This document shows positions 11,689-40,198 of a DNA stretch of 64,000 bases, in pieces; within the stretch, counting starts at the first letter, position 1, and each line of letters opens with the position of its first letter. The DNA lies in the NCBI GenBank assembly GCA_963695855.1, contig CAVOHZ010000010.1, positions 1,664,001 to 1,728,000 on the forward strand, in the 5' to 3' direction. Origin of the DNA: an uncultured Nitrososphaerales archaeon (GTDB taxonomy: Archaea; Thermoproteota; Nitrososphaeria; Nitrososphaerales; Nitrososphaeraceae). The notes under the pieces were generated by a model that saw only the letters and a list, made by a program, of their open reading frames with translations, made no database searches and had not been told where the DNA came from. The position numbers and the translations under genes are program-made.

Positions 11689-11815
11689 AAGTATGCAAAT
11701 TTTGAAATTATTTGCTGTAGGCATCCCATCTGGGTATTCGGTTAAACAAATCACTCGGCTAGATTATTTGTCTGTTCTTTTTTATAATCTTCAATTCCAT
11801 ATGCTTCAAGAATTG

Positions 11816-12890
11816 ATTTTCAAGATTCATTGCCAAAGTAATGAAGATAGACTTGAGGCATTCTACTGGACATTGACGATCCAGCATGATCTCTCAAAGT
11901 ATGCTCTTTCAAAATGAAAGACTTTGAAGTTAGAGCAGAACGTCTCTGAATATAAGGAGCCCAAGGTTTTGTTAACAAATTTCTAATGTATGATTTATCT
12001 GCTTCTGGAATGTTAGAATCTTCAAGTAACTTTGGGAAATAGCGTTTTTTATAGCTACGTGTATACTGTTTGTATAATGCATTTAAGTTGTTGTCCAAAA
12101 TTACTATCTGCTAAAGATATAAAAGACATCAGGATTGTTTGCAAGAGGATGAGAATCAATCCAACCTTTGACATAGGGAATTGAAAAAATAAGAGGTTTA
12201 GTCTTGTTTTCTACTATGTCAACTTCTGCATATTCTGTACCATTAGATGATACTTTGAACATGATATCCTTTAATCTTAGGGAAAGTAATTCATGTGACT
12301 TACATGAAGTATCATTTGCCATCGCATGATAACAACGATATCTTTTTTCTGGACAATATTTCAAAAATAGTGCATGATCTTTACTGGTCCATATATCAGA
12401 GGCTTTGTAGGTTGATGTTTGCTTTCTTGAAAGTTGTTTGATCTTGCATACATAGAGGAGTAATGCATTTCTTTTGTTCTAGTTTGCCATTATTTTTAAC
12501 TTTATTATATTGATAGTAGTAATTGTATAACCATCTGTCTGGTGTTGTATGTTCCTATTCATTAATCAGTAGGATTATCTGATTCTGTTTTCTTTAACGA
12601 AGCTAAATAGGAAATTATATCTTTTGTTATTTTTGAAAGTCTTTGTAACGTAGACGTTTATTGAATAAACAAATGACTTTGATATGTGTTGATATTGTAC
12701 TGGATTTAACATTCTAGATATTATATTGTGGTTCAAGAAATTTGTAAGGATCATTAATGTTTTGTAGATTTATAGAAGACATTTTTTTAAAAAGAGAATT
12801 GTAATAATAGTATGAAATCGCTTTTTAGTTAATAACTGGATCTTTTTTCTAAATCTACGATTATGATGCTGTTATTATTATTACTATTAC
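11816..12890 (-). pseudogene. Degraded paralogue of the tRNA-Val integrase
   Basis: YCPEKRYRCYHAMANDTSCKSHELL, IPEADKSYIRNLLTKPW and MPQVYLHYFGNES closely match 37552..39063; catalytic R lost, multiple frameshifts. Confidence 0.9.
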
Positions 12891-13819: not shown

Positions 13820-13951
13820 ATTATTTTTTTATTATTTTTAGGAAACAAAGAAAGATTAAGAAATTATTCTTGCAAAGAAATTGGAAGTTGATCTTTAAAA
13901 CTATTTCTTTAATAAACAGTTTTCTAACTTCATTGGCAGTATAGTCAATCT

Positions 13952-13987
13952 CGTGAATTGAATGGAGGGGATGGGATTCGAACCCAT
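13952..13987. repeat. att direct repeat, distal junction (36 bp)
   Basis: CGTGAATTGAATGGAGGGGATGGGATTCGAACCCAT identical to 39121..39156. Confidence 0.95.
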
Positions 13988-21159: not shown

Positions 21160-21273
21160 ATGTCCAATAAGTGCAAGTGCTGGGTTTGCTCGTTTTTAAC
21201 TGAATGTGCGGACCAAAAAGTATATCAACAATCTACACACATGCAGAAAGTTCTAGGTAAGAAGAGGTCATGA
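21160..21273 (+). CDS. Tiny Cys-rich protein (37 aa)
   Basis: MSNKCKCWVCS..EC; ATGA overlap with the helicase start. Confidence 0.45.
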   Translation: MSNKCKCWVCSFLTECADQKVYQQSTHMQKVLGKKRS

Positions 21274-22751
21274 CTTCAACACCAGGAGGTTTTGATTCCG
21301 AATATACCAAAAACGCACATTACGATGTTTTTGGTACACGTATGGCTGATTTTAGTGATGCAAGAAAGAAAAAGCAGGAACTGATAGAGGACGGTACAAG
21401 ATTTGTCATGGCCCGACATATTTTTTTGACAGTTGAGGAAACAAAAGAAATTCTATACTATGACAAGGATAAAGGAGTTTATGTATCTGGGGGAGAACTA
21501 ATAATTGAAAAAGACCTAGAAGATATATTTGAATTTAAATTAAGAGTTGTAGACATATCAGAAATAAAAGGCCACATAATGAGGAAAACGTACGTAAAAA
21601 TGGAGGAATTTGATGCTGATCTTGATATTTTAAACATGAAAAACGGCCTATACAACTGGAGGACAAACAAATTGAAGCCACATACACCCGAATACTATTC
21701 TATGATACAGTGTGGTGTCAAATACGATTCCAGGGCAAAACCAAAATACTTTATGACATTCCTAAAGGAAGTTTTGTATGCTGAGAACATAAGAACAGCC
21801 TTGGAGATAATTGCATATACCTTCATACGTTTACATTTGTTTGAGTGCTACTTTATTTTAGTAGGCACCGGCTCTAACGGTAAGAGTGTGTTTGTAGGTG
21901 TGTTATGTGCTCTACACGGGAAGGATAATACCGCTAATGTCTCTTTGAAGGAACTGGTAGAAGACAGGTTTGCTCTTGCGGACCTAGTTGGAAAGAATGT
22001 AAATGTAGATACTGAACTATCAAGCAGCAGTATAAAGGATATGTCTATTCTCAAGAAACTTACAGGAAATCAACCGATAAGGGTACAGAAGAAAGGACAA
22101 CATGCCTTTGAGTCTGTGCTATGGGCCAAGCAGATATTTAACGCCAACCAGTTACCGGTAACAGATGATCATACAGACGCTCACTTTAGAAGAGAGATAA
22201 CGCTATCGTTCCCATATCAGTTCAAGGAAAAAAAAGATGATGATGATACTATAATAGGTACAGTAGAGGAGGATGAACCCAATGTCAAGACGGCAGATAT
22301 TCACATGTTAAAGAAACTTACAACCAAGAAAGAACTGTCAGGGATTTTCAACCTTGTAGCCAAGTCCATGAGGGCAATAGATCGCAATAAGAAGATATAT
22401 GCAGATTCTAAATCTATTGATGATAGAAGAGAAAAAGCGGAATTAACGAGGGACCCTATAGGTGCATTTGTCGATATCTGTAAGGTACAGCCAATAGCAC
22501 CAACATCAAACAGTTTTATGTTAAAAGAGGATCTCTACAAAATATTCAAGAATTTCTGTGAAGTGAAGAAGTTACATGTACCAAGTTATGGGGAATTTGC
22601 TGAAATAATGAGGAAAGAACACGGTTACAAAAATAAACGAAAGATGATACTTGGAAAGAAGGAAACTGTCTGGTATGTTGAGGTGAATAATCCAACTGGA
22701 GAAGAGGAAGTCGAAAGTGAAGATGTAGCAAATAACAACATAAACAACTAA
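21270..22751 (+). CDS. D5/P4-family SF3 helicase (no primase domain)
   Basis: LNMKNGLY..LKPHTPEYY (D5_N), Walker A GTGSNGKS, LKKLTG, NANQLP, AHFRR. Confidence 0.92.
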   Translation: MTSTPGGFDSEYTKNAHYDVFGTRMADFSDARKKKQELIEDGTRFVMARHIFLTVEETKEILYYDKDKGVYVSGGELIIEKDLEDIFEFKLRVVDISEIKGHIMRKTYVKMEEFDADLDILNMKNGLYNWRTNKLKPHTPEYYSMIQCGVKYDSRAKPKYFMTFLKEVLYAENIRTALEIIAYTFIRLHLFECYFILVGTGSNGKSVFVGVLCALHGKDNTANVSLKELVEDRFALADLVGKNVNVDTELSSSSIKDMSILKKLTGNQPIRVQKKGQHAFESVLWAKQIFNANQLPVTDDHTDAHFRREITLSFPYQFKEKKDDDDTIIGTVEEDEPNVKTADIHMLKKLTTKKELSGIFNLVAKSMRAIDRNKKIYADSKSIDDRREKAELTRDPIGAFVDICKVQPIAPTSNSFMLKEDLYKIFKNFCEVKKLHVPSYGEFAEIMRKEHGYKNKRKMILGKKETVWYVEVNNPTGEEEVESEDVANNNINN

Positions 22752-23107: not shown

Positions 23108-23818
23108 TTAGGGCGGTCCTATAATGAATTCAACTCCTGCGTCTTCAAGACATTCTATCAAATCATCAACAACTTCTGGATCTACACCAGGTAGAGCCAA
23201 CCTGAAAGCATCTTCAGGAATGACTGATCCATCTTCAGGATTAACAAATAGTATACAAAATCGTTCGATCGATTCAACTCCAAATAGTTCTACAAAAGTG
23301 GTAATTTCGTCTGGAGATAGAAATTCTTCAAAACATTCTTCACATGTTCTTTGTGGAGTACTAGTTCTTATCTGTTCATTCACATTAACATTTACACATA
23401 TGTTTACAAGGTTTTTCTCGAAGTTTATTTTATCAAAGCCATTTTCATTTTGTGCGTTTGCTGCCTCTGGACCCGCTCCCTCATTTGTTGCTGCAGTAGC
23501 AGTAGTGTCTTCAGGTATTTGGGTAATATCTATTCCATTGACATTTATGTTACTGTTTACACAGGATATTTTCTGGATATCTCCATAACTCTTTTTTTGA
23601 TGGTTATTGTCATAACCGTACTTGTTGTCGTCTTGGTAATAGTAGTTGCTATTATATCCATATTGATCACCATAGTAGGAATGTCGATCGTCATCATAAC
23701 CTTCACTGCCATATGGCATTGCTTGTGCGTTTGTAATTGTTGATGGGTTTAGAGCCAGTATACTTGTCGCTAGTATTGCCCCTAGTATAGAAGCAAATAC
23801 TATCATTCTATTGCTCAT
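23108..23818 (-). CDS. Secreted/surface protein with Tyr/Asp-rich linker
   Basis: Signal peptide, YGYD-rich tract, KISCVNSNINVNG and NLVNICVNVN, acidic Cys-containing C-terminal domain. Confidence 0.8.
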   Translation of the reverse strand: MSNRMIVFASILGAILATSILALNPSTITNAQAMPYGSEGYDDDRHSYYGDQYGYNSNYYYQDDNKYGYDNNHQKKSYGDIQKISCVNSNINVNGIDITQIPEDTTATAATNEGAGPEAANAQNENGFDKINFEKNLVNICVNVNVNEQIRTSTPQRTCEECFEEFLSPDEITTFVELFGVESIERFCILFVNPEDGSVIPEDAFRLALPGVDPEVVDDLIECLEDAGVEFIIGPP

Positions 23819-24025
23819 TACATTGTTAAATGTGAATTTATTATATCTAAGGTTGGAAGGAACATTATCTAATCCTGTAATATTTTATCATGCTGAATTA
23901 TTGAATATAAGAAGAATAGCAATTGATCTACAAGTACAATATTAGATGTTATAATAATCTCAAGAATTCTGTTTTGTTAGTTTGTTAGTTAATTAATTAC
24001 CAAGAATTGGTACAAAAATAAAAAA
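23811..24025 (-). repeat. Upstream module copy 1 (near-identical to 25515..25730, partial copy at 25036..25143)
   Basis: Shared CATTACATT..AGGTTGGAAGGAACATTATCTAAT..CATGCTGAATTATTGAATATAAGAAGAATAG. Confidence 0.9.
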
Positions 24026-24031
24026 AGTGGA

Positions 24032-25042
24032 TTAAGGTCCCAATGGACTGTTCTGGCAGACTACGAATGCTTTGAGGGAAATACCTGATCCAACTCCAAC
24101 TCCTGTTACATTCCAGCCTGTTCCATCTGTTGTCATACGAGATGTTTCTACGGTAGATGCCCCTGCTTTTGTAAACCCTCCACCGGTTACAACATCATCG
24201 TCTTCACAGTTAGCGATTGAACTTAAGGCAATGCCTGTTGTATCAGCAGTACCTTCATTTTGATAGGTAGTTGGTGTGAATGCTATATTACAAACCTCTG
24301 CAGTTGCGTCTACAACCCATACACCTTCCAAGTCACTAAGCGGTGGACATTGTTCTGCTGGGGTTGCTGCATCACAGAGTTGTGGGTCTGTTACTATTGC
24401 ACTACCCAAGTTAGAATCTGCTTTACATGTAAAGGTTGGAACATCTATACTACAATTTGCATCAGTTGCTTCTACTACCCATACACCTTCCAAGTCAGTA
24501 AGTGGTCCACACTGTTCTGCTGGGGTTGCTACATTACACAGATCTGGGTCTGTTACTTTTGCACCTGCACCCAAGTTAGAATCTGCTTCACATGTAAACA
24601 AGGTGACTTCTTGAGGTGGTTGTGAATCAGCAATACCTCTTGTCTGTTCGTTGCCATTAGCATTTACACAAACGTTTACAAGGTTTCTGTCAAAGTTTAT
24701 TTTATCGAGTCCGTTACCAATCTCTGTATTTGCGGCTTCTGGACCTCCTTCATTTGCTGCTTCTAAGGCAGTATTGTCGCGAGGTATCTCGGTAACATCT
24801 ACACCATTTACGTTGAGGTTACTATTTCTACAATTTATTTTCTGGATATCTGTGTAAGAACTCTTTTGATCTTTTTTATCATAACTATACCTATTGTCGT
24901 CTTGGTAATAGTTATTGTCGTATCCATACTGATTGTCGTACATTTCCGCTTGTGCATTCCATATCATTGATGGGCTTAAAGCCAATAGACCTGCGGCTAC
25001 TATCACTGTGATAGAAGCCAGAACTATCTTGTTATTGGTCAT
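24032..25042 (-). CDS. Paralogous secreted/surface protein with two ~54-aa Cys-rich repeats
   Basis: N-terminal half homologous to 23108..23818; FTC.ADSNLG..VTDP.LC..ATPAEQC..DLEGVWVV occurs twice; C-terminal CEDDDVVTGGGF. Confidence 0.8.
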   Translation of the reverse strand: MTNNKIVLASITVIVAAGLLALSPSMIWNAQAEMYDNQYGYDNNYYQDDNRYSYDKKDQKSSYTDIQKINCRNSNLNVNGVDVTEIPRDNTALEAANEGGPEAANTEIGNGLDKINFDRNLVNVCVNANGNEQTRGIADSQPPQEVTLFTCEADSNLGAGAKVTDPDLCNVATPAEQCGPLTDLEGVWVVEATDANCSIDVPTFTCKADSNLGSAIVTDPQLCDAATPAEQCPPLSDLEGVWVVDATAEVCNIAFTPTTYQNEGTADTTGIALSSIANCEDDDVVTGGGFTKAGASTVETSRMTTDGTGWNVTGVGVGSGISLKAFVVCQNSPLGP

Positions 25043-25143
25043 TACATTCTTAAATACGAATTTAATATATCTGAGGTTGGAAGGAACATTATCTAATGGT
25101 GTAATATTTTATCATGCTGAATTATTGAATATAAGAAGAATAG
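25036..25143 (-). repeat. Upstream module copy 2 (partial)
   Basis: ~108 bp matching 23812-23919. Confidence 0.85.
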
Positions 25144-25245
25144 AAAATGATATTTAGGTGGAAAGAAAGTGAAATCCTAGCATTACAGCAACCAATACAG
25201 GTCCACGAAAGACCCAAGATAAGAAATAATATCAGCATGACAAGC

Positions 25246-25292
25246 ATAGAGGGGATGGGATTTGAACCCGTTACGTGCATTCAATGGTTTGT
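25246..25292 (-). repeat. Internal degenerate att site
   Basis: GAGGGGATGGGATTTGAACCC followed by GTTACGTGCATTCAATGGTTT, similar to 13961-14008. Confidence 0.8.
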
Positions 25293-25345
25293 GCAGTTCA
25301 TACTTAAGAAACAGATAGAAACTAAAATTGAAGAATTATAGACAT

Positions 25346-25522
25346 TTAATCTTCAAAGAAAGGTCTATGTTGAACATCGAAACCTGGAGAGATATTTGCA
25401 AATTGCATTATTGTGATCATTTTGCATATTTTGTCCTGTAACTCTGAATGTTCAATGAATTTCTTTTTACAAATAGGACATTTAGTTTCTTTTCCTACAT
25501 TCATAATGTTACTATTGCTCAT
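25346..25522 (-). CDS. Small zinc-finger protein (58 aa)
   Basis: MSNSNIMNVGKETKCPICKKKFIEHS..KIC; ATG at the same module position as the two secreted paralogues. Confidence 0.6.
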   Translation of the reverse strand: MSNSNIMNVGKETKCPICKKKFIEHSELQDKICKMITIMQFANISPGFDVQHRPFFED

Positions 25523-25730
25523 TACATTCTTAAATACGATTTTATTATATCTAAGGTTGGAAGGAACATTATCTAATCCTGTAATATTTTATCATGCTGA
25601 ATTATTGAATATAAGAAGAATAGCAATTGATCTACAAGTACAATATGAGATGTTATAATAATCTCAAGAATTATATTTTGTTAGTTTGTTAGTTAATTAA
25701 TTACCAAGAATTGGTACAAAACAAAAAATA
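25515..25730 (-). repeat. Upstream module copy 3
   Basis: ~215 bp near-identical to 23811..24025. Confidence 0.9.
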
Positions 25731-26868: not shown

Positions 26869-27879
26869 TTATATTGATTCTTGTAATTGATATGTCTTTT
26901 CTTTTTGTTTTAAATTATTTGTTTGATTTTTCAGTATATCATCATATAGATTAATTAAATCAAAAATATTCTTTTCATATATTTTTGTATTTCTTACTTC
27001 TCGATCATAAATTGGATCAAATTTTTTTTCGCATGTTATTTGTCTGAACTTGATATAATTTTTATTATCATTAGTTATGTATATCATAGCCTTTAGTAAA
27101 TTTTCTATATTCTCTTGAATTATTTTATTCCTTGGTATAAAATTATATAAAAAGATACCTTCCAATTGATCCAAAAAAGAGGAAGATAAACTTCCATGAA
27201 CACTGTGAGACCTATGAAAAATAATCTTTTCAACAAGACCTTGATCTTCAGGAAAACCTTCAGGAAAACCATCAAAATTTTCTTCAACTATCGCTACGCT
27301 TTTTGCTTCAGCAATGATCTGAAACTGCTTCATTAATTCATCAGAGAGAATCCTACTTAGAATCATCTTGGATATTTCGTTAACTTTGAAATCCGATATT
27401 ATTTTAAAAAATCTGTATATTAACAAATTACATATATTTTTTATATATAGTTCTGTAACAGAATCTAATGTATTATTGTATTGTTCAAAAGAATTTAAAT
27501 CATTTTTTGTCCATCCACTATTTAATAACAAACTTCTTCTTCCCCTTTCATCCGCTTTCATCAATTTTTCATATTTTTTAACTTCATTTTGTAATGATGA
27601 AAATTTCTTATGAATATAATCAACATTATCAAATAAGTCCGTTATTTCTGTGCCTAATGGGGTAAGAATTTTGAGTTCTTTTTGTTTATTCACTTTTTTT
27701 ATCTCCAAAATCTTTCCATCTTTAAGCAATTTTATTGCTCTTTTAATTGCTGGGCCATCCTTGCTACCGGTTGCTTCATTCACTTCTTTTACGATTCTGT
27801 TTACCCATAAGTTTTCATTTTTGTGAGTGCAATATACATTTAAAATATCTATACATTTAGAAACTGGGAGCGTTTCCAT
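26869..27879 (-). CDS. Hypothetical protein with N-terminal winged helix
   Basis: IKRAIKLLKDGKILEIKK..ILTPLG; divergent from the nuclease cluster. Confidence 0.7.
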   Translation of the reverse strand: METLPVSKCIDILNVYCTHKNENLWVNRIVKEVNEATGSKDGPAIKRAIKLLKDGKILEIKKVNKQKELKILTPLGTEITDLFDNVDYIHKKFSSLQNEVKKYEKLMKADERGRRSLLLNSGWTKNDLNSFEQYNNTLDSVTELYIKNICNLLIYRFFKIISDFKVNEISKMILSRILSDELMKQFQIIAEAKSVAIVEENFDGFPEGFPEDQGLVEKIIFHRSHSVHGSLSSSFLDQLEGIFLYNFIPRNKIIQENIENLLKAMIYITNDNKNYIKFRQITCEKKFDPIYDREVRNTKIYEKNIFDLINLYDDILKNQTNNLKQKEKTYQLQESI

Positions 27880-28448: not shown

Positions 28449-29279
28449 TTGTCTAACACTTATCAAAATGGTCATTCAAACAATAGCGAAAAAGAAACAA
28501 CACAATTAAAAAATATAGGGAATGTCTCAAAGAAAGAGGCTGTAGAAGAATTACAGACAACATTTGGATCTATTAGATTGAAATTAAATACTAAATTATT
28601 TAACTCGTCCATATTTTCAATAATACAAGATAATCCTTGTCTTGTAAAATGTATACATGATTTAAGAAATAAAAATGATAATAATATTGATTCGTTTTAT
28701 ATTGCAAAACATGAATGGATAAAGAGGAAAATAATAGATGCGATATTGGATAAATTTGACAATCAAATAGAAGTAAGATCTGAATATAGTCTTTCTAATG
28801 GAAAATTAGATATAATCATATTACAAATGCTGTATGATAAAATCCAAATCCAGTACAAAACAAAAACAATTGCAATCGAGATAAAAAGTGGAGAGACAGT
28901 AAATAGTAAGTTTTTTTGTCAGATCGAAAGATATCTTACGGATACGGATGTATTGTTAATGATAAGAGTTCCTACTCAAGATGTTGTTGCTATTTATAGC
29001 GATAGAATCATGAATGAACTAATAGAAGATCTTTCGTTATTGAGAAGAAAAGCAGATAAAATATTATCCAATTCAGTAAAAAAAGTTCCTGGTGAATGGT
29101 GTAGGGAATGCAATGCAGATTGTGAATTTAAGAAATATCCTAAATGGAACTCTAGTCATAAAGGTTCGTTTAAAGGTTATGAGGAACTTCTAAAGGATGT
29201 AAATATTGTTATTACAAAATTAATTATAATTCTAGAACAAATACTTAAAGAATATCAACAAAAGGAAATTAAATCATGA
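28449..29279 (+). CDS. PD-(D/E)xK nuclease, Cas4/AddB-like
   Basis: KHEWIK, EYSL.NGKLDII, IAIEIKSG, QIERYL; N-terminal Cys (NPC) and C-terminal WCRECNADC. Confidence 0.75.
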   Translation: MSNTYQNGHSNNSEKETTQLKNIGNVSKKEAVEELQTTFGSIRLKLNTKLFNSSIFSIIQDNPCLVKCIHDLRNKNDNNIDSFYIAKHEWIKRKIIDAILDKFDNQIEVRSEYSLSNGKLDIIILQMLYDKIQIQYKTKTIAIEIKSGETVNSKFFCQIERYLTDTDVLLMIRVPTQDVVAIYSDRIMNELIEDLSLLRRKADKILSNSVKKVPGEWCRECNADCEFKKYPKWNSSHKGSFKGYEELLKDVNIVITKLIIILEQILKEYQQKEIKS

Positions 29280-30355
29280 CTAGCAATACTACTCATATAT
29301 GGAAATGTAGGCTTTGTCATAATAATTTTATTCCAAAAGATCTTAATTTATCACATCTTACAAGATCTGCACCAGTCTATTGTTCTATAGAATGTCGTAT
29401 TAAGGGTTCAAGAACACTTAAGACTATTCTTTGTGATAACCCTAATTGTGGCAAACCAATAAAAAGACAACCTAATCATATAAAAAGAAACAAGCATAAT
29501 TTTTGCAATAATTATTGCCATAAAATATGGCAACGAGAGAGTGGCTATATGGCCGGTGAACAAAATCCAGGATGGCTTGGAGGGCTTGACTGTCGTTATA
29601 GAGGGCCAAACTGGAATAAACAAAAACAAAAAGCATTAGAACAAGACAACTATACATGTCAAAAATGTGGTATTAAAAATGCAAATCTTGTAGTCCATCA
29701 TATAAGACCTTATCAATTATTTGATGATTGTATAAAAGCAAATGATCTGTCAAATCTAAGAACTTTATGTAAAAATTGTCATGGTATAGAGGAACATAAA
29801 TTTATTAAATCTAATCCCAATTTACTACAATTAAGAAGGATACCAAAGAATATTCCTCCTGTCAAAAAATGTATTAAGTGTAATAATATGTTTCAACCAT
29901 TGACCTATAAATCAAAGGCATGTGATAATTGTATGATAAGTAAATGTCTCAACTGTGCAAAAGATTATCGTGTAAAAGAATATTACAAGTTAAAAACTCA
30001 GAAATTCTGTAGTCCCCTCTGTGTATATAAATACTATAATAAGAAAGGTATCTGGCCAATTAGAAAGATAATACCATCTACTATAAAGAAGATGAAGATC
30101 TTGCGAGATCAAGGAATGTCATACAAAAAAATTGCAATTCAACTAGGGTTCAGTAAATATGCCGTTAGAAACAATTTGTTAAAATCCTTTGGTAGGAATG
30201 CTATTCAGTATTCTACTACTCATGTAGATAATACATTGATGGAGAAAATGCAAATACTAAGCAATCAAGGTCTTTCTACAAGAAATATTGCTACTCGATT
30301 AGGAATTGGCAAATCCACTGTTGCAAAATATTTAAAGAATCATAGGATGACATAG
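29276..30355 (+). CDS. HNH endonuclease with multiple Zn fingers and two C-terminal HTH motifs
   Basis: YTCQKCG..LVVHHIRP..NDLSNLRTLCKNCH; GMSYKKIAIQLG and GLSTRNIATRLGIGKSTV; ATGA overlap with the upstream gene. Confidence 0.88.
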   Translation: MTSNTTHIWKCRLCHNNFIPKDLNLSHLTRSAPVYCSIECRIKGSRTLKTILCDNPNCGKPIKRQPNHIKRNKHNFCNNYCHKIWQRESGYMAGEQNPGWLGGLDCRYRGPNWNKQKQKALEQDNYTCQKCGIKNANLVVHHIRPYQLFDDCIKANDLSNLRTLCKNCHGIEEHKFIKSNPNLLQLRRIPKNIPPVKKCIKCNNMFQPLTYKSKACDNCMISKCLNCAKDYRVKEYYKLKTQKFCSPLCVYKYYNKKGIWPIRKIIPSTIKKMKILRDQGMSYKKIAIQLGFSKYAVRNNLLKSFGRNAIQYSTTHVDNTLMEKMQILSNQGLSTRNIATRLGIGKSTVAKYLKNHRMT

Positions 30356-30659: not shown

Positions 30660-33600
30660 TTGAAAAATATCCGTGATTTTGAACGGGCAAGAGAATATGT
30701 AAGAACCTTAGGGATTAAAAGTGTAAACGGCTGGAAAAAATATTGGAAAAAGGAGCAAAAACCCGAAGATATACCTTACAATCCGGATAGGGAATATAAA
30801 AATAAAGGTTGGATGGGTTGGGGAGATTTTCTTGGAACAAAAAATGTTTCTTCCAAACAGGACTATTATTTACCTTTTGAAGATGCAAGAGAGTTTGTAA
30901 GAAAACGAGGACTGAAAACTTATGGCGAATGGCGTAAATATTGCACATCTAAAGAAAAGCCTGCAGATATTCCTTCAAAGCCTGAGGTTTACTACAAGAA
31001 TAAAGGTTGGATTGATTTTGGAGACTGGCTTGGAACAACTTATTTACCATTTGAACAGGCAAGAGAGTTTGTAAGAAAACTAGGACTGAGAAATCAAATT
31101 CAATGGCGTAAGTATTGTAAATCCCAAGAAAAACCAATTACAATACCATCTAATCCTGATAAGACATACAAAAATAAAGGTTGGACTGATTTTGGAGACT
31201 GGCTTGGAACATATGCTATAGCACCTCAAAAAAGAAAATTTTTACCTTTTGAAGATGCAAGAGATATTGTAAGAAAATTAGGACTGAATAATGTTGATGA
31301 ATATGAAAAATATCATAAAAAAAATAAACCAAAACAAATACCATATTCGCCTCAAAGATATTATAAAAATAAAGGATGGATTGATTTTGGAGACTGGCTT
31401 GGAACATATACTATAGCACCTCAAAAAAGGAAATATCGCCCATTCAATGAAGCACGATAGTTTGCTCGGTCGCTTAATCTAATTAGTTCAGCAAATTGGG
31501 ATGAATATGTGACAAAAAATGATTTACCTTCAGATATACCCAAAGCACCATACATAGTTTACAAAGAAGAATGGCAAGGATGGGGTGATTTCCTTGGAAC
31601 TGGAATAGTGGCTACGCAGGATGCAGGATGGTCTATAGAAAAAGTAAAAGAGTTGTTAAGAGATTTGATAAAAAATAAGGTAATTTACCAATGGAATGAA
31701 GATGCACGTCTTTACAAAGTCTTAATGACTAAAGGAGTATTAAATTTAAAAAGTGAGAATAGACATTCTAATTTTTTTAAAAACTTGAGACAAACTGTAA
31801 AAACAGAAGAAGGAAGAAAAATTATTGAGGAATATGCATTTTCACAAAGCAATGATATACCAGACTTATCCAATACATATTCAGAAAATAACGATGAAGA
31901 AATTCCAATAGCATCAAATGAAGAACTGATTAATTTAGTCAACGATAAAGAAGAGCCGTTAGACTATAAAGAGCCACCAACAGTTGAGCAGATTCTATCC
32001 ACTATCTGTATGCTTGAATCCATTAATGTAGACGAAGAAGCCATGCAGTTTTTTCTAAGGGGATCTGTAAATGATTTCTGGAAGAGAGCATTCAAAGAGG
32101 AGGAGAAAACTGTTTTATCTGTTCAACAAGAAGGAAAAAATGGACAGAAGTTTCATGATAGTGTTCTAGAAACTTTTCTGTCAGAGTATGAAAATACTAA
32201 GGAATTAAAGATTCCTAATGATTTCTCACCTGATCTCAAACCTACTCTTATGCAAAAATTTGTAGCATATAAAATTAGCATTTCCCCTTATTTTGGAAAC
32301 TTTTCCGGAACAGGTGCAGGAAAAACCCTTTCCGCGGTATTATCAAGTCGCATTATAGGTAGTAAAATGACTGTAATAGTTTGCCCAAATGATATAGTTA
32401 GACAATGGGAAGAAGAAGTTAGAAAAATGTTTTCGAATTCAAAAATATTAACTGAAAAAAAGGCATTTAATACAATACGTAATCAGAAGAAATATCAATA
32501 TATTATACTAAACTATGATAAATTTAACCAAAATGATTCAAGTGACAATATTCTTAAACTTATGCAACAAAAAATTGATCTAGTTATTTTGGATGAAATT
32601 CATTATACCAAAGTAACAACAGAGGAAAAGGCAAGTCTTAGAAATAAAAATCTTATTGGATTATTGACAGGTATCAGAAAGAAAAATCCTATAGCAAAGG
32701 TTTTAGGTATGTCAGCAACTCCTGTAGTTAACAATTTAACAGAAGGAAAATCCCTTTTAGAAATGATAACAGGAAAGATATATACCGACCTCAAAACTAA
32801 GGCTACTGTTCCAAATGCGGTTACTCTTTATGAAAAACTATCTACAATTGCTATTAGAGAATTACCTTCGTATAATATCAATACAGAAGAGGAATTTATA
32901 GAAGTTGATGCAGAACTGGACATTTCCACTAATAATCGAATTCTTTTAAAAAATCCCTTATCCACAGAACAGGTTTTAACAAAGGCTAGGATAAAAGAAA
33001 TAATAAATCATATTGATAAAGGGGGTTTTACAATTATTTATACAGAATATGTAGGAAAAGATATTATTAAAAATCTTTCAAACGCCATTAAGGATTTAGG
33101 ATTAAACTATGCAGTTCATACTGGTTCTGATCATACAGGGAAAAAACAATTTCAAGAAAAGAAGGCACAGGTATTGATTGCATCTAGTCCATTATCAATC
33201 GGTATAGATGGACTTCAAAAAGTTTGTAACAGACTAATAATAAATTCACTTCCTTGGACAAATGCAAGATACCAGCAACTTATTGGTCGCTTAGTTAGAC
33301 CAGGTCAGATACATAATAAAGTAAAAGTTGTAATAATATTGGCTTCATTAAAAATTAAGGAAAATAAATATGAATATGATCGTAGGAAATGGAATAGAAT
33401 ACAATATAAAAAAACTCTTGCAGATTGTGCAGTAGATGGTATATTACCAGAAAAAAATCTTGTGACTAGGGAACAGGCTCACAGGGAAGCCATACGATGG
33501 TTAGAAAGATTAGAGCGAGGTGAAATTTCTACAGTATCACGAAGAGACTTAGAAATAGAACTAACTCCAGCCGAAAAAAGACTCTTAATAAGAAAATATG

Positions 33601-34169
33601 GTGATATAACACTTCAGCATCAAAAAATGAACACAGAATACTCTTTTACAACTCATGAAAGAATGCAAAAAGATCCGCAGGAATGGCTTCAATATCATAG
33701 ACAATTAGATGAAAATAGGAAATTATGGCCTATTGATCCACTAGATGAAATCATAAGTAGATTAAAAACAATGTCACCGAGATTACGAATAGGTGATTTT
33801 GGCTGCGGAACAGCAAAAATTATGGAGGAAATAGGTTCTGATCGAGTAATTAGTTTTGATCATGTCGCAATAAATGATAAAGTCATAGAATGTGATATCA
33901 AATCAGTTTCTAAATATGTGGAAAACAATAGTCTAGATGTTATTATTTTTTCATTATCTTTAATGGGAAAAAATTGGCAAGACTATATTATTGAAGCCAA
34001 AAGATGCCTTTCGACAAGGAGTTCTCTTTTTATTGCAGTGACAACAAAAGAATTAGATGAAGGAAGAAGGCTACATTTACTTCCCAATGTTTTAAAGGAT
34101 AATGGCTTTTCTATTGATACTCAAGAAGAACGAGGAGATTTTACATTTATGGAAGGAATAAAAATTTAG
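30660..34169 (+). pseudogene. Integrase-repeat (INT_rpt-like) + SF2 helicase + Rrp8-like SAM methyltransferase fusion with one in-frame TAG at 31458-31460
   Basis: Five ~62-70-aa repeats (FE.AREFVRK.GL..W..GW.DFGDWLG); GTGAGKT, DEIH, SATP, QLIGR.VR; DFGCG, FSLSLMG; ORFs 30660 and 31509 share a frame. Confidence 0.85.
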
Positions 34170-35539: not shown

Positions 35540-36871
35540 TTATTGGTCATTAACAAATTTAACCCCTTTCAACAGCAAACGAAGGGCGTCCAAGTCATCG
35601 TTGTGGACACTCACATTTTTGTCAAGGTTCCATTCATTAGCGTGGGCAGTCTTTAGTGACAGGATTAATCGATCAAATTTGGAAGGTATAGCAAGTTTCT
35701 GTTTTGTTAAAAGTTGATATGTGTGTTCAAGCATTTGTTTATGTTCTTTTGCAAAGGATACAGGTATCACAAAGTTGGATTCAGGATTTATGTCTTCGGA
35801 GCGGTCCCAGTCTAAACTCTCACCAAATCTGGATTTACATTCATTAACAGCAGCCCGGTTACTTCCATCCACAAACCACCATAGATTAGGGATTTCAGTA
35901 TGTAGTTGAAATATACGATCACTGATTACAGAAGGAGTTGTTTTGTCATATTCCTCTCCTAGGACAATTTTAACTATTTCATTTTCTGTATCTAATTCTG
36001 CAATGTATATAGTTGTAATGGATGTAGAGAAGCCGAAATCAATCCCGCCGATATGAAGACAGTAATTATTTAATGGTAAATCCTTGTATTTTTCCCCTAG
36101 TTGTACCGCCCTCTCTATGTCTTCAATTGCAAAAACGTTCCCAATTTTTCCTAAATATTTTAAATCATATTCTCTATCAAATGAAGGACTTTGCTTTGCT
36201 CTCTCTATATCTTCAATAGTATAGATTTTATTCAAGCCATAACGATAATCTAACTTGATTCTTTTGTAAAGACATATATCTTCAGGTTCCTGTTCTATAG
36301 TCTGCATTAATCCTCCTGCTGCATTAGGTGTTGAAACCATAACGATAAAGGGATTAGATTTACCGATATATCTCTCGGCTACGGCCCTTACATCTTCCTG
36401 CTGACCCTTTGAAAAGAAATCGCATTCATCTAACAATATGAATTTAGGCGAATCGAGGGAACGAAAAGAGTCTACATGATGTGATGGGAATGATTCGATA
36501 GTTACACCATTTAGATTCAGTAAAGTCTCTTTAGTATCAAAGTAAATGCCTAATGGTTCAAACAATCGTTTCATTCTTGTTATTAACTTCTTACTAAGAT
36601 CCCAATTTGGTCCAGTAACGATAACAAACTGAGAACCTTGATAGTCATTATTACGCAGACATAACCAAGACATATATCTTAGGAATAATTCGGTAATACC
36701 TAATCCCGTACTCTTTAGAATCCAGATACATTTATCGTACTGCAACAAGTCAAGAACTATTTTCTCATAATCAAATAAGGCTTTACTAATTCCATCCTTT
36801 TTAGGTAGTCCCAATATATGATTAAAACAACAATTATTCATAGTTGCTATTTGTTCGTCATGATGCAGCAT
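35540..36871 (-). CDS. terL: Terminase large subunit (TerL)
   Basis: LFDYE, KSTGLGITE, ILLDE Walker B, STPN, FDREY; nuclease GIDFG, VDGS, HNDDLDALR. Confidence 0.88.
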   Translation of the reverse strand: MLHHDEQIATMNNCCFNHILGLPKKDGISKALFDYEKIVLDLLQYDKCIWILKSTGLGITELFLRYMSWLCLRNNDYQGSQFVIVTGPNWDLSKKLITRMKRLFEPLGIYFDTKETLLNLNGVTIESFPSHHVDSFRSLDSPKFILLDECDFFSKGQQEDVRAVAERYIGKSNPFIVMVSTPNAAGGLMQTIEQEPEDICLYKRIKLDYRYGLNKIYTIEDIERAKQSPSFDREYDLKYLGKIGNVFAIEDIERAVQLGEKYKDLPLNNYCLHIGGIDFGFSTSITTIYIAELDTENEIVKIVLGEEYDKTTPSVISDRIFQLHTEIPNLWWFVDGSNRAAVNECKSRFGESLDWDRSEDINPESNFVIPVSFAKEHKQMLEHTYQLLTKQKLAIPSKFDRLILSLKTAHANEWNLDKNVSVHNDDLDALRLLLKGVKFVNDQ

Positions 36872-37298
36872 GTTCTAGTTTTGCCTTTATCTGTGCTATG
36901 ACTGGCGTACCCAATGATAGTTCCTGCAACAGTTTAGCATTCTCTCTAATCTCATAACGTAACTTCTGGATTAAATCTAGATTCCTTCTTTCTGCAGGTT
37001 GTTTATTTTGTTCTATCAAGTAATCACGAATTGTATCCTTCTGGACCATCTCAACAACCTCGATTATTTGCTGATGCTTGATTACGAAGCCGACTCTTGA
37101 AAAATATGACATCCATTGATTGGCATACTCACCACTGTCAACCTCTTTTTTTCTACGATAATAGGTATGTGGTGATATAGGCCTACCCAGACGGGCCTTG
37201 ATGTAGGCTAATGCTTCCTTCTCTGTAAAGCCGTAATTTACGGTATCTGCTACAAGTGGCATTAAAACCTGTTTTTCCTTTTGTGTGAAATTTCCCAT
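36858..37298 (-). CDS. Putative terminase small subunit (HTH)
   Basis: Directly upstream of and overlapping terL; HTH-like GFTEKEALAYIK..ISPHTYYRRK followed by helical region. Confidence 0.6.
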   Translation of the reverse strand: MGNFTQKEKQVLMPLVADTVNYGFTEKEALAYIKARLGRPISPHTYYRRKKEVDSGEYANQWMSYFSRVGFVIKHQQIIEVVEMVQKDTIRDYLIEQNKQPAERRNLDLIQKLRYEIRENAKLLQELSLGTPVIAQIKAKLEHAAS

Positions 37299-37551: not shown

Positions 37552-39063
37552 TTATTCATTATAATCTGATTTAGGAACATACATTCCATTATCGATAAAG
37601 TCATACGCTAGCCATTTCTTTTTGGTTTTTTTCTCCCGTTCTGTAACTGTTACCAATTTATCCATAGTATCCATAACCATTTTAACCTGCGATTTTAACG
37701 ATTCCACTTCTTCCTGCATTCCCTTTATCTGATTCTCTTTTTCTTTTTGGTTTTCTAACGTATATTGATATGAATGATAAGACAAAACCATTTTACATTT
37801 TACACAGAATTTTGAATCGTGTTTGTTTGATTCATTACAGTTAGGACAATACCTGGGTTTTAGTAATTCAATTCCTTCTGCTATTCCTTCATTTTCTTTT
37901 ATAATACCCTTGGCCTGCAGGATTGATCTTACTGACTCGTTACCAAAATAATGGATATACCTCTGTGGCATGTTGCTGTTAATACTCCAACCTGCATGAT
38001 TTCTAAGCATGTGTTCACTTAATTTCATTCTGGATTTTTCGGTTAATGCTGAGTGTCTGAATATATAGAGATTCCAAGGTTTTGTTAACATATTTCTGAT
38101 ATGGGATTTATCTGATTCTGGTATAGTCGTAGTGGTAGTTTTATCATCATTATTATGATTACTATCAAGTAGTTTACGAAAGAAACGATTGTATTTGTTT
38201 TTATATCTTTTTAATAATCCATTTACCAATAATTGATTTACAGAATTGGTATTTTTGTCACTTAAAGACACGAAAAACCATGAATCATGATTATCCCCAC
38301 ATGGATGATTTAACAACCATTCTTTTACATAAGGAATACTATCAATAAGTGGAAGGGTTCTTGGTCCAGTCTTACCGTTTACTGTAATTTCTGCATACTG
38401 TATTTCCTCTGATGAGATCTTAAATTTCAGGTCTTTTATCTTTAGATTAAGAAGTTCGTGAGGTCTGGCAGAAGTATCATTGGCCATTGCATGATAACAC
38501 CTATCTCTGATAGAAGGACAATATTTCAAAAATATAGCATGCTCTTCATTGGTCCACATATCCTCCGGCTTGTACGGTGATACTTCTTTCCTGGGAAGTT
38601 GTTTGATTCCCTGCATACAGTCAGGTGCATCCCTATTTTTGTGGTTCGTTTCATCTGGACTGTATAACCATTTGAAGAATTTCAGGAATAACATTTGTCT
38701 TGCATTCCATGTTCCTACACTCTTGTGAGTTGGGTCCACAGAAGAGGATTTTCTAAGGTTGTTTAGGTACTCCAGTATGTCGTCTTTAGTCATATCGTAA
38801 AAGGTTTTTTTATGTTCAAAGAATTTGGATAAATGTATCAGTATTTTTATTTTGGTTTCTTTTGTTGACTCTTTTATATTTAATTCGTTTTGTTCTGCAG
38901 TAATATAATCACATATTATTTTAACATTAAGAGGATTGGTCTGAACAAGTTCATTTAATCTTTTTGAGATGTAAGGTTTCAGGTATGTTGTAAGAGATTT
39001 TATTTTTCTTGTCAATTTTTCTTGTTCTTGTATTTCAATCGTTGTTGTTGTTGTTGCTCCCAT
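37552..39063 (-). CDS. int: Tyrosine integrase with C-terminal zinc ribbon and coiled coil
   Basis: DTSARPHEL (R), GKT (K), YIFRHS (R), HAGWS, QRYIH (Y); CPNC..CVKC; starts 57 bp from att. Confidence 0.93.
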   Translation of the reverse strand: MGATTTTTIEIQEQEKLTRKIKSLTTYLKPYISKRLNELVQTNPLNVKIICDYITAEQNELNIKESTKETKIKILIHLSKFFEHKKTFYDMTKDDILEYLNNLRKSSSVDPTHKSVGTWNARQMLFLKFFKWLYSPDETNHKNRDAPDCMQGIKQLPRKEVSPYKPEDMWTNEEHAIFLKYCPSIRDRCYHAMANDTSARPHELLNLKIKDLKFKISSEEIQYAEITVNGKTGPRTLPLIDSIPYVKEWLLNHPCGDNHDSWFFVSLSDKNTNSVNQLLVNGLLKRYKNKYNRFFRKLLDSNHNNDDKTTTTTIPESDKSHIRNMLTKPWNLYIFRHSALTEKSRMKLSEHMLRNHAGWSINSNMPQRYIHYFGNESVRSILQAKGIIKENEGIAEGIELLKPRYCPNCNESNKHDSKFCVKCKMVLSYHSYQYTLENQKEKENQIKGMQEEVESLKSQVKMVMDTMDKLVTVTEREKKTKKKWLAYDFIDNGMYVPKSDYNE

Positions 39064-39120
39064 CTTCTTGTGACTATTGGAAAGTTTGACGTCTTAAAAT
39101 AAAAACCTTAGTTATAAACC

Positions 39121-39156
39121 CGTGAATTGAATGGAGGGGATGGGATTCGAACCCAT
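39121..39156. repeat. att direct repeat, tRNA-proximal junction
   Basis: Identical to 13952..13987. Confidence 0.95.
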
Positions 39157-39206
39157 GACCACCTGCGTGTAAGGCAGGTATCCTAACCAGTCTAGACAAC
39201 CCCTCC
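39132..39206 (-). tRNA. trnV: tRNA-Val(TAC), no encoded CCA, no intron
   Basis: GGAGGGG..CCCCTCC-A acceptor stem, anticodon arm CCTGC-CTTACAC-GCAGG, T arm ATGGG-TTCGAAT-CCCAT. Confidence 0.97.
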
Positions 39207-40198
39207 ACATTACTATAATCTTAATAGTTGAACTGTTTGATACATCGATATTAATAGTTTTTATCAGAAATTTATCGAATATAGAAATTTAATAAATCAT
39301 TTTATGAAATTATGTTTTATATATTCAGTTTTTAAATCATTTAATAGTTAAAATTGTAAATACAATTTATTTGATCATATTTGATGTGACAATCAAAAAA
39401 TAAAACGAAAAAATTCTATTTTAGTTTTATTACAGTATATTAGAAAATTTTGATTTATTCTATTGGATAATATTAATTTTAAGTTATGGAAAGTTCTTTC
39501 AAACAAAATACTAGTTATATGTCTGCTATCAAATTAAAAGCTGTTTCAGAGTGATCATTAATTAAAAAGATGATATTTAGCAAATATATAATAAAATGAA
39601 AAACAATTTTAATAAATATAGATGTATTTCCTTGGCATTTTATAAAAATAAAATATAGTATTAAATACCAAGTTTAAATGAAATAAGATGTATTCACTAA
39701 AAATTGTTAAACTAAGTCTATATAATATTTTAGGAAATATTACAAATTTTGATGATGGAAACAAAAAAATTTGAATAAGATATTAATCATGAAAAATGAT
39801 AATTTTTTTCGATATACAGTTATGATATATGTTTACAATTGATTTTATTATTTGACTCGAATTTCTAGTTTTACTATTAAAATTTTGCTATTTGATATAA
39901 TAGATATTTAATAAAGCAAAATACAACCTTTCTCTTTTTGCTTCAACAGTAGTATATTATTATAAAATTGTTATACGAACACTATATCTAAATAACGTTC
40001 AAGCTTATTATAAAAGTCTTAAATTTATTGAATAGCAAATATTGTAACAAAGTATTAAATTGCATATTTTGTTCTATCACTCTATTTTGAAATAAAAGAT
40101 TTCTAAATTTATTGTAATATTCTATATGTTAGAGCTATTCTTAGATATTTATAATACAATATTTTTAAATTGGGAAATGGAATCCACAGAATATAATA

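Follow-up and report, generated by a model that had tools for sequence, protein, structure and literature searches.

The Nitrososphaeraceae archaeon studied here, an ammonia oxidiser, carries at positions 30660–34169 of the window (the whole 64,000-nucleotide stretch of DNA that was analysed) an interrupted gene for a protein in which small tandem repeats precede a helicase-type motor and an Rrp8-like methyltransferase. The locus raises the question of what such an enzyme would modify, and whether it would do so in defence of a cell or in the service of a mobile element.

Gene frame and domain architecture

Translation and the ORF list place 30660–34169 (+) in one frame of 1169 codons with a single interruption, a TAG at 31458–31460 (+). 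A scripted scan of the frame revealed zero further in-frame stops before the terminal one, likewise a TAG (34167–34169, +), and the same-frame ORFs split by the interruption are 30660..31460 (266 aa, TTG start) and 31509..34169. The first coding piece (30660–31457, +) contains INT_rpt-type Trp-rich repeats 1–4 and the first six residues of repeat 5. The nonsense codon stands at the seventh residue of that repeat, and the remainder of repeat 5 follows at 31461–31634 (+), as recognised from the homologue alignment and an INT_rpt (PF14882) match of E 0.0018, which is under the cut-off. The five tandem repeats of ~58–66 aa, with units starting near 30660, 30866, 31040, 31238 and 31433, had been noticed in a sequence-only reading of this DNA and were recovered in the protein, in the DNA (repeat families D2, D3 and D6) and by motif count (5 units); 12 Trp fall within the first 267 residues of the frame. 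When the Pfam families named in that reading were scanned, Methyltransf_8, ResIII, SNF2 and Helicase_C scored over their cut-offs, but the window repeats reached 18.9 bits against the INT_rpt cut-off of 26.5, compared with 39–90 bits for aligned homologues. The language-model (ESM) features of the repeat piece have INT_rpt clusters as their nearest clusters (0.95). An AF2 model of the repeat piece consists of small helical units (pLDDT 82.7), for which Foldseek gave 0 matches in the PDB at E ≤ 0.001 and VIA-align wide a best Z of 3.3 with no DNA-binding match. These searches returned no informative match, so that the folds speak neither for nor against DNA binding.

The repeats are followed by an all-helical accessory domain (31635–32300, +; AF2 pLDDT 84.6) with no nuclease-like fold; a Foldseek search of the PDB returned 0 matches (E ≤ 0.001), and VIA-align wide retrieved generic helical bundles only (best Z 7.8). 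The adjoining region, 32301–33410 (+), is assigned to an SF2 (DExH, SNF2-like) motor with motif I (GTGAGKT) at ~32310–32330, followed by DEIH, SATP and QQLIGRLVR, all of which occupy invariant columns in an alignment of 22 sequences. Pfam returned ResIII (6e-13), DEAD (4e-9), SNF2-rel_dom (7.5e-9) and Helicase_C (8e-6). SNF2-rel_dom (PF00176) reached 35.5 bits (cut-off 24.9) while covering only model positions 27–187 of 290. With ResIII and Helicase_C over their cut-offs and with SF2 motifs I, II, III and VI and two RecA-like domains present, the complete SF2 motor of the sequence-only reading is borne out. In PHROGs the motor matched two phage giant-protein families, phrog_62 (“DNA helicase”, 6.7e-41) and phrog_11801 (“DNA methyltransferase”, 2e-11). 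Its weak matches elsewhere are all to DNA enzymes, namely DrmD, DpdE, RadD and XPB (PADLOC/NCBIfam) as well as Hel308, Fft3 and Rad25 (family profile).

At the C-terminus, 33624–34151 (+) carries a class I SAM methyltransferase domain of the Rrp8 type with the motifs DFGCG, FDH, CD and FSLSLMGKNW. Methyltransf_8 (PF05148) matched at E 6.3e-32 and 111.7 bits, compared with a cut-off of 27, and the family profile matched human RRP8 (PDB 2ZFU) at E 5e-38 with the SAM-binding motif I and motifs II–IV aligned; DFGCG, FD, CD and SLSLMG align with 2ZFU and are invariant in the 22 sequences. The earlier assignment of this domain to the Rrp8/nucleomethylin group rather than to the classical restriction–modification methylases thus holds. 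PF05148 is the sole methyltransferase match in Pfam, which gave no N6-adenine or N4/C5-cytosine DNA methylase domain, and no nuclease domain was found in Pfam, PADLOC or NCBIfam, the sole unassigned domain being the all-helical one. In summary, motifs, profiles and alignments show a protein in which a variable small-repeat array and a helical domain lead into an SF2 (DExH/SNF2-like) motor, with an Rrp8-type SAM methyltransferase at the end.

The interrupted copy and its setting on an integrated element

That the gene carries a stop had also been recorded before. By sequence comparison the TAG at 31458–31460 is a nonsense mutation, because the closest full-length homologue, P0001 (RPFNEAREFARSLNL), has Glu at this position between flanks identical to those of the window. 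Glu is found at the TAG position in 27 of 59 homologues. The Glu-to-stop change within repeat 5 most likely inactivated the local copy; at best it would still yield a repeat protein of 266 aa together with a motor-methyltransferase shortened at its N-terminus. A functional version of the latter outcome, in which the stop is tolerated and the locus works through the 266-aa repeat protein and an internally started motor-methyltransferase of ~886 aa, is given a minor share of the probability. It would resemble naturally split marine forms, as the repeat region and a motor-methyltransferase of 874–902 aa are separate ORFs in four marine Nitrosopumilus/Nitrosopumilales loci (L005, L010, L012 and L013), INT_rpt is absent from many homologues of 827–890 aa, and the 902 codons downstream of the stop are still open with all catalytic motifs intact. 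However, the open frame equally fits a recent mutation, the stop sits close to where a repeat unit begins and not at the junction of the marine loci, and the first possible restart, a GTG 16 codons past the stop, shows no sign of use. Moreover, close relatives show decay of other kinds: a frameshift precedes the methyltransferase in P0003 (94% identical), and 11 of 18 related loci are broken into two or more pieces.

An intact gene with an assembly or sequencing error, or with read-through of the TAG, is very improbable: a single base separates the TAG from the Glu codon expected from P0001, but a 357-base piece of soil-metagenome contig X1 (31409–31765) shows 0 differences across the TAG, albeit possibly from the source sample and hence not independent, and TAG terminates 5 of the 28 long ORFs in the window, the helicase-methyltransferase gene included, so that a reassigned TAG is not credible. 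A second contig piece, from X2 (31379–31565), differs from the window at 2 positions. None of the 24 sequencing runs listed is an RNA run containing the sequence.

The gene belongs to the cargo of a ~25-kb element that has integrated at tRNA-Val, and is not part of a chromosomal island directed against mobile genetic elements (MGEs), because it lies within that element. The integration target is tRNA-Val(TAC) at 39131–39207 (−; ARAGORN; Rfam 64.5 bits; repeat family D11). A 41-nt att core at 39116–39156 is duplicated at 13947–13987 with 95% identity, which places the element at ~13988–39115; weaker copies (71%) are found at 25231–25271 and 3350–3390. The element encodes a tyrosine integrase with a zinc ribbon (37552–39063, −; PF00589 2e-8, phrog_1 1.7e-20), a terminase-large-subunit-like (TerL-like) gene (35540–36871, −; phrog_2 1.1e-20) with a small ORF upstream at the place expected for TerS (36858–37298, −), and a D5-type primase-helicase (21270–22751, +; DUF5906 5.2e-20, D5_N 4.1e-12). 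The ordinary archaeal genes SHMT, PolD DP2 and PcrB follow directly past tRNA-Val.

This setting disagrees with the proposal that the gene forms an anti-MGE system placed after two nucleases. One of the two, an HNH endonuclease with a C-terminal HTH (29276–30355, +; PF01844 1.4e-7, HTH_23 3.9e-9, phrog_1271 1.8e-26), was confirmed. The other, an ORF at 28449–29279 (+) that the HNH ORF overlaps by 4 bases, gave no family match in Pfam, PADLOC, NCBIfam or PHROGs; ESM features of 0.95–0.96 to PDDEXK_1/Cas4 clusters make it a lead for a possible PD-(D/E)XK/Cas4-like nuclease. Neither upstream gene is a conserved neighbour, as they are absent from 18/18 related loci and 3/3 plasmid loci, and these loci likewise revealed no other conserved partner gene.

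Family distribution and candidate roles

Within its own genome the gene is present as a single copy. A PF14882 profile search of that genome retrieved this gene only, and a PF05148 search returned it as the only strong match. Of 151 genomes from the same taxonomic family, 25 have matches, representing 9 of 18 genera (one of the 25 being the unpublished genome G035); across the class, 4 of 301 genomes do so at E ≤ 1e-30. All 21 loci from the genome collection belong to Nitrososphaerota, many of them on short contigs; four of 18 loci have an integrase match no more than 10 kb away, and one locus has a D5-type primase. Three full-length bacterial copies reside on plasmids, two from Rhodococcus and one from Crinalium. 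The motor-methyltransferase core extends over Nitrososphaerota and many bacterial phyla, the methyltransferase domain alone giving 1168 sequence clusters at E ≤ 1e-10. The N-terminal arrays vary strongly: motif counts gave 0–8 INT_rpt units per protein across 97 homologues, and bacterial members carry 1–12 DUF4379 zinc-ribbon units in place of INT_rpt (Pfam). A Sigma70_r4 HTH was found in 4 of the 47 bacterial members scanned; matches to TAL_effector, HHH_5 and RNA_pol_A_CTD in bacterial members were discarded, being below cut-off or without a single passing stretch. None of 152 pattern matches in IMG/VR encodes a relative, and tblastn against INPHARED at E ≤ 1e-8 gave no homologue. In summary, this is a large, uncharacterised, patchy and often decayed family of accessory and mobile stand-alone proteins. 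With the local copy broken, it is the family rather than this locus that is of value. A literature search for the architecture of INT_rpt, DUF4379 or Methyltransf_8 with a helicase, some papers being judged by title or abstract, returned no treatment of it.

The reading we favour, at a probability of about 40%, is that of a DNA methyltransferase coupled to a helicase, which would work on behalf of the element as DarB does for phage P1. Docked on DNA by its repeat array, the enzyme would use its ATP-driven motor to travel along the duplex or open it, and its methyltransferase would act on the bases that the motor exposes. The mark would protect element DNA against restriction, comparable to the methylase–helicase dyad of P1 DarB and plasmid polyvalent proteins. 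A DNA substrate is suggested by the Sigma70_r4 HTH of some bacterial members, by the nearest helicase models, which are DNA enzymes, and by the PHROG matches. It should be noted that N1-methyladenine disrupts base pairing in duplex DNA and would be odd as a protective mark.

DNA docking by the repeats is plausible by analogy. For the 120 relatives listed for the repeat piece, precomputed Pfam annotation assigns Mrr_cat_2 to 75 and PF05148 to 10 (our count); in 12 of 20 hand-picked proteins, a Pfam scan confirmed Mrr_cat_2 alongside ResIII and Helicase_C. In these bacterial Mrr nuclease-helicases the INT_rpt array comes after the nuclease-helicase part. All seven that were compared with the PADLOC model REase_MTase_IIG matched positions ~3–675 (ends ~645–675) of its 1646 positions, with E-values from 1e-86 to 2e-99. 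Since the match is limited to this part, the INT_rpt repeats stand where REase_MTase_IIG has its methyltransferase and specificity half, which argues for DNA docking. For the repeat fold itself the best Z was 3.3, with nothing DNA-binding among the matches, and the argument for docking is therefore one of domain-architecture logic. The earlier suggestion that the repeats bind nucleic acid gains plausibility from these INT_rpt arrays, with support that is indirect.

Among the alternatives, a defence effector protecting the cell or its carrier element against other invaders is considered unlikely. The repeats would here recognise foreign DNA, the motor would load, and Rrp8-type methylation would either mark this DNA so that an unlinked reader nuclease acts on it or block replication via the base-pairing face. 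The hypervariable and swapped N-terminal arrays described above would suit such a role, as would the patchy spread, the frequent decay of copies and the occurrence of the same repeats on Type IIG-like Mrr nuclease-helicases. Members of PADLOC families (E ≤ 1e-10) account for 11 of 134 neighbouring proteins in 7 of 18 loci, a raw count without background rate, so that enrichment near defence genes is not demonstrated; they comprise AbiU, PbeA, parts of Type I and Type II restriction–modification systems, a KAP/QatA-like NTPase and PycC-like cyclases. These neighbours fit a defence role as well as the DNA methyltransferase reading. Of the association with defence islands or MGEs proposed earlier, the MGE part is evident and the defence neighbourhood is modest. 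Conversely, a nuclease or other killing domain is lacking, the N-terminal domain being all-helical, and so is a conserved partner gene. PADLOC is blind to the family: the check proposed earlier gave the window protein and nine relatives no family match beyond weak helicase-level similarity, with no match for 5/9 relatives and weak DrmD/BrxH helicase matches only for 4/9. Nor was Mrr_cat_2 found in the own genome, and among five archaeal genomes with intact copies a single, weak match was found (24.1 bits). A split restriction–modification pair with an Mrr–helicase–INT_rpt partner was rejected on these two results.

An RNA-directed enzyme, introducing Rrp8-like m1A into ribosomal or structured RNA opened by the helicase, appears more doubtful. 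The element would thereby alter host ribosomes, e.g. against a ribosome-targeting toxin or antibiotic. This view draws on the strong RRP8 homology (E 5e-38), in which all SAM-binding and motif IV residues are aligned, and on the many RNA helicases among SF2 motors. To our knowledge, moreover, all characterised Methyltransf_8 enzymes are rRNA m1A methyltransferases. Passages of PMC3553958 describe m1A645 of yeast 25S rRNA as the product of Rrp8 and report m1A in an archaeal 23S rRNA. Set against it are a repeat module common to restriction-type nuclease-helicases, the Sigma70_r4 HTH of some bacterial members and the DNA enzymes among the closest helicase models; a patchy, decaying and element-borne gene is also unlike a housekeeping rRNA modifier.

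The most far-reaching interpretation, to which we assign a still smaller chance, is a new class of conflict enzyme on archaeal and bacterial mobile elements. It would place m1A on motor-opened nucleic acid, the mark being either a replication- or translation-blocking lesion on rival DNA or RNA or a self-mark of a new type. The interchangeable INT_rpt and DUF4379 arrays would then act as programmable modules for recognition, held in common with Type IIG-like nuclease-helicases. If this were true, eukaryotic Rrp8 might descend from such a mobile-element enzyme. The identity of the substrate would show whether m1A-type chemistry acts on DNA in genetic conflicts, and work on it would reveal the targets of INT_rpt and DUF4379 and the cargo of mobile elements in ammonia-oxidising archaea.

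Comparison with known systems

The element resembles cryptic Thaumarchaeota elements such as NitKor-E1 in its integration at a tRNA 3′-end, its tyrosine integrase and a TerS/TerL gene pair without other virion genes, as described in passages of Krupovic et al. 2019 (PMC6563490); those passages on NitKor-E1-type elements make no mention of a comparable helicase-methyltransferase. With respect to defence systems, the motor shows weak partial similarity to DISARM DrmD (42 bits in PADLOC, 48.6 bits in NCBIfam), BREX BrxHI/HII and Dpd DpdE. The DrmD score is far from the NCBIfam cut-off of 610, no other Drm protein is encoded among the 12 neighbouring ORFs, and none of the remaining genes of DISARM, BREX or Dpd systems was found near the gene. 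Like the single-polypeptide REase_MTase_IIG enzymes, which we take to be Type ISP enzymes (e.g. LlaGI, LlaBIII), the window protein combines a recognition module, a motor and a methyltransferase in one chain. It differs from them in lacking a nuclease, in a motor that gave no match to the model and in a methyltransferase from a different family.

A further counterpart is found in bacterial proteins annotated as “zinc-ribbon domain-containing protein” (DUF4379 repeats, SF2 helicase and PF05148), e.g. on the Rhodococcus plasmids pSID and pRWAY01. They share the motor-methyltransferase core, with 31–64% identity of methyltransferase-domain matches among the listed full-length and partial proteins. 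Their N-terminal array consists instead of 1–12 treble-clef zinc ribbons, sometimes with a Sigma70_r4 HTH, rather than INT_rpt, and they are likewise uncharacterised.

In P1 DarB and the polyvalent dyads, too, a single chain encoded on a mobile element unites an SF2 motor with a methyltransferase, and the matches of the present motor to phrog_62 (6.7e-41) and phrog_11801 (2e-11) point to the same phage giant-protein families. We know of no array of recognition repeats in DarB. DarB is packaged in virions, whereas the present family has no homologue in INPHARED or IMG/VR, which makes a DarB-style delivery inside the virion unlikely. The logic of a dyad of SWI2/SNF2 ATPase and adenine methylase in polyvalent proteins is set out in section 14 of Iyer et al. 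2017 (PMC5512222), a paper with 0 occurrences of Rrp8; the methylase of these dyads is an N6-adenine DNA methylase unrelated to the Rrp8-type domain described here. That domain is a clear homologue of yeast Rrp8 and human RRP8 (nucleomethylin, 2ZFU), a nucleolar eukaryotic protein that carries neither helicase nor repeat array; its activity, according to the pertinent passages of PMC3553958, is N1 methylation of a single adenine in 25S/28S rRNA. In the present family, by contrast, it ends a motor protein of ~1170 aa on prokaryotic mobile DNA. In the known helicase-methyltransferase fusions on mobile DNA, the methyltransferase is invariably a classical DNA adenine methylase; in the present family an Rrp8-type domain takes that place, and a fast-changing array of small repeats always stands ahead of the motor-methyltransferase core.

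Gene architecture and the internal stop

The gene occupies 30660–34169 (+) as a single frame of 1169 codons that is cut by an in-frame TAG at 31458–31460, the sole in-frame stop between the start and the terminal TAG at 34167. Residues 1–330 form five tandem Trp-rich units of ~58–66 aa each (F-x-x-A-R-x-F-V-x-x-L-x-L ... W ... P-x-x-I-P-x-x-P ... Y-K ... W-x-x-x-G-D-W-L-G-T), and the repeats are also visible in the DNA (repeat families D2, D3 and D6) and by motif count (5 units). The array is followed by a ~220-aa domain, all-helical in the AlphaFold2 model (pLDDT 84.6), and by a complete SF2 motor (GTGAGKT, DEIH, SATP, QQLIGRLVR) with Pfam matches to ResIII, DEAD, SNF2-rel_dom and Helicase_C. 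The C-terminal class I methyltransferase belongs to Pfam Methyltransf_8 (PF05148, E 6.3e-32); a profile built from the protein's family also finds the solved structure of human RRP8 (nucleomethylin, 2ZFU; E 5e-38), and in that alignment the residues for SAM binding and those of motif IV correspond. On the strength of the Pfam matches, the 2ZFU profile and the motifs, the sequence-only reading was right in all main points when it described repeats, an SF2 motor and an Rrp8-like domain. The helicase and Methyltransf_8 families it had named were recovered by Pfam; for INT_rpt (PF14882), the window's own repeats score under the cut-off and aligned homologues exceed it. By language-model features, the repeat piece falls among INT_rpt clusters.

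The closest full-length homologue, P0001 (74% identical), has RPFNEAREFARSLNL at the place of RPFNEAR*FARSLNL in the window, and Glu occupies the stop position in 27 of 59 homologues. The TAG is thus explained by a single substitution in a Glu codon. TAG is an ordinary stop in this window, terminating 5 of its 28 long ORFs, the studied gene among them. As the 902 codons beyond the internal TAG are open and retain all catalytic motifs, the stop either arose recently or leaves a truncated product that still has a use. The copy at this locus, broken by the TAG, is probably inactive. That it functions as a split form is a minority view, perhaps one chance in four; repeat region and motor-methyltransferase (874–902 aa) are separate neighbouring ORFs in four marine Nitrosopumilus or Nitrosopumilales loci, and a split form therefore exists in nature. 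An assembly error is very improbable, and a soil-metagenome contig piece, which may derive from the source sample, spans the stop with no difference. The assembly comprises 3.55 Mb in 11 contigs and is 99.87% complete.

An element integrated at tRNA-Val

A tyrosine integrase gene (37552–39063, −) adjoins tRNA-Val (39131–39207, −), and genes for PolD DP2, GGGP synthase (PcrB) and SHMT lie directly right of the region, in keeping with an archaeal host. A 41-nt stretch over the tRNA-Val 3′ end recurs at 13947–13987 with 95% identity, a duplication that bounds an integrated element of ~25 kb. Apart from the studied gene, its contents include a D5-type primase-helicase, a gene resembling the terminase large subunit, next to which a small ORF is placed as a TerS gene would be, an HNH gene and a PD-(D/E)XK-like gene. 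This gene set resembles that of NitKor-E1, a cryptic integrated element of Thaumarchaeota (PMC6563490).

Integrase, tRNA-Val and att bounds thus identify the studied gene as mobile-element cargo. The sequence-only reading had recognized the Rrp8 likeness correctly; the anti-MGE system it proposed from the position just after two nucleases did not hold, and the gene sits inside the integrated element, not in a chromosomal anti-MGE island. As for the two nucleases, the HNH protein (29276–30355, +) was confirmed, and the other (28449–29279, +) resembles PD-(D/E)XK nucleases in language-model features only. HNH endonucleases beside terminase genes often serve DNA packaging; on that footing, the two nucleases would need no defence role.

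Copies of the tRNA-Val 3′ end lie at 3350–3390, 13947–13987 and 25231–25271 (71–95% identity), those at 25231 and 3350 being weaker. Integrase remnants at 10252–12098, left of the main element, include one fused in frame with an HSP20 domain (10252–11214) and a 92-nt stretch (11920–12011) that is 74% like the live integrase gene. The weaker att-like copies and the remnants suggest a tandem array with older, decayed integrated elements. Duplications internal to the element (23357–25728) comprise one of 217 nt (96% identity) and two shorter ones of 173 and 117 nt (75–77%). Two ORFs of equal length (24032–25042, −, and 26869–27879, −; 336 aa), with no family match in four libraries, may be paralogous cargo genes; a 945-aa ORF of the element (17526–20363, +) matches no Pfam family at E ≤ 0.001.

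Elsewhere in the window, an IS240-family DDE transposase gene (1964–2623, −) has beside it, at 2940–3300, a 39-nt repeat present six times and a 99-nt tandem unit present twice; the intervals of 38–65 nt are shorter and less regular than a CRISPR array would have. Coding tandem repeats occur at 54975–55091 (Thr/Ser/Pro-rich, 18-nt unit) within ORF 54267–55265 and at 318–422 (Asp/Gly/Lys-rich, 21–30-nt unit) within ORF 142–435, both ORFs probably encoding low-complexity surface or secreted proteins.

Distribution and neighbourhood of the family

Of 7999 candidates scored in a protein search, 521 passed E ≤ 0.001; their sources call them "integrase repeat-containing protein" or "DEAD/DEAH box helicase family protein". 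The named relatives belong to Nitrosarchaeum, Nitrosotenuis and Nitrososphaeraceae; each of the 21 related loci in genomes falls within Nitrososphaerota. The archaeal distribution is patchy: 25 of 151 Nitrososphaeraceae genomes match, the unpublished genome G035 included, in 9 of 18 genera. The own genus contributes 3 of 21 genomes, not counting the own genome with its one copy; at class level, a less sensitive survey scoring three candidates per genome gave 4 of 301 at E ≤ 1e-30. Decay is common among the archaeal copies, as the gene lies in two or more ORF pieces in 11 of 18 related loci, many matches from the Nitrososphaeraceae survey contain internal stops, and a 94%-identical relative has a frameshift ahead of the methyltransferase. 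Across 97 homologues, the repeat units ahead of motif I number 0 to 8, while the core that begins with motif I and runs to the C terminus keeps a length of about 609 aa.

Searching with the methyltransferase domain alone retrieved 2148 cluster representatives at E ≤ 0.001, of which 1168 also pass E ≤ 1e-10; the top 150 are for the most part C-terminal domains of 860–1800-aa proteins. A Pfam scan of 35 of these 150 found PF05148 in all 35, a helicase domain in 25, DUF4379 treble-clef zinc-ribbon repeats in the N-terminal part in nine and a Sigma70_r4 HTH in three. Further members have as many as 12 zinc-ribbon units, and sources name the DUF4379 members "zinc-ribbon domain-containing protein". 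Rhodococcus, Nocardia, Corallococcus, Novipirellula, Fuerstiella, Rhodothermus and others are among the named sources. Three full-length copies are on plasmids (two Rhodococcus, one Crinalium); one Rhodococcus copy adjoins an FtsK/SpoIIIE gene, and the Crinalium plasmid is mobilisable. No relative was found in either of two virus collections. Most of the 150 best Rrp8-type relatives are prokaryotic helicase fusions, a majority which raises the question of a direct common origin of eukaryotic Rrp8 and the mobile-element enzymes.

No conserved partner gene emerged in 18 archaeal loci or three plasmid loci. Within the archaeal neighbour set (134 proteins of at least 95 aa from the 18 loci, shorter ORFs left out), integrase matches occurred in four loci, two above Pfam's cut-off, and transposases in two; 11 proteins in seven loci matched PADLOC families at E ≤ 1e-10. 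Such counts support variable, island-like surroundings, though not a claim of enrichment. PADLOC gave the window's protein, proposed earlier as a candidate defence or modification enzyme, partial, helicase-level matches only (best DrmD, 42 bits); five of nine relatives had no match at E ≤ 1e-8 and four had weak ones. A defence role is unlikely, at about half the weight of the reading preferred below.

Repeat arrays and a possible mode of action

The 266-aa repeat piece was also used to look for longer proteins. Among the 120 matches listed, 75 pair the restriction endonuclease domain Mrr_cat_2 with ResIII and Helicase_C, and PF05148 occurs in 10 (our own count from a precomputed Pfam column). 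Mrr-helicases with C-terminal repeats were found by Pfam scan in 12 of 20 proteins, picked by hand rather than at random. All seven Mrr-helicase-repeat proteins compared match the PADLOC "Type IIG restriction enzyme-methyltransferase" model (E 1e-86 to 2e-99) over positions ~3–675 of 1646; in the Mrr-helicase proteins, the repeat array takes the place of the model enzyme's half for methyl transfer and target recognition. The strongest case for possible DNA docking by INT_rpt arrays comes from this nuclease-helicase architecture; predicted repeat folds and fold searches were uninformative on the point.

Proteins with Mrr_cat_2, an SF2 helicase and C-terminal INT_rpt form a large bacterial family (P0385–P0503, from genomes and metagenomes) whose first ~650 residues match the Type IIG nuclease-motor half, and may be modification-independent restriction enzymes. 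A two-gene pairing of nuclease and methyltransferase forms in archaea was unsupported. A genome search found Mrr_cat_2 absent from the own genome, and it occurs, weakly, in one of five archaeal genomes with intact copies.

Established here are the architecture, intact catalytic motifs, mobile-element carriage, variable arrays and the absence of a partner gene. By analogy, the protein is best, if tentatively, read as a helicase-coupled DNA methyltransferase of DarB-like logic (probability about 0.4): the array would bind DNA, the motor would translocate along it or open it, and the Rrp8-type domain would methylate exposed bases. Its motor scores against giant-protein families of phages that are annotated as DNA helicase and DNA methyltransferase. 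Against this reading, the sole known chemistry of the methyltransferase family is m1A in rRNA (PMC3553958), and m1A would be an odd protective mark for duplex DNA. An RNA target appears improbable, somewhat more so than a role in defence.

The value lies in the family rather than in this locus. Widespread and unstudied, it adds a further form to the pairing of methylase and helicase known from mobile elements. Among known systems, the logic of the repeat-motor-methyltransferase protein comes closest to that of the SWI2/SNF2-methylase dyad in phage P1 DarB and plasmid polyvalent proteins, a dyad proposed to shield incoming DNA from restriction (PMC5512222).
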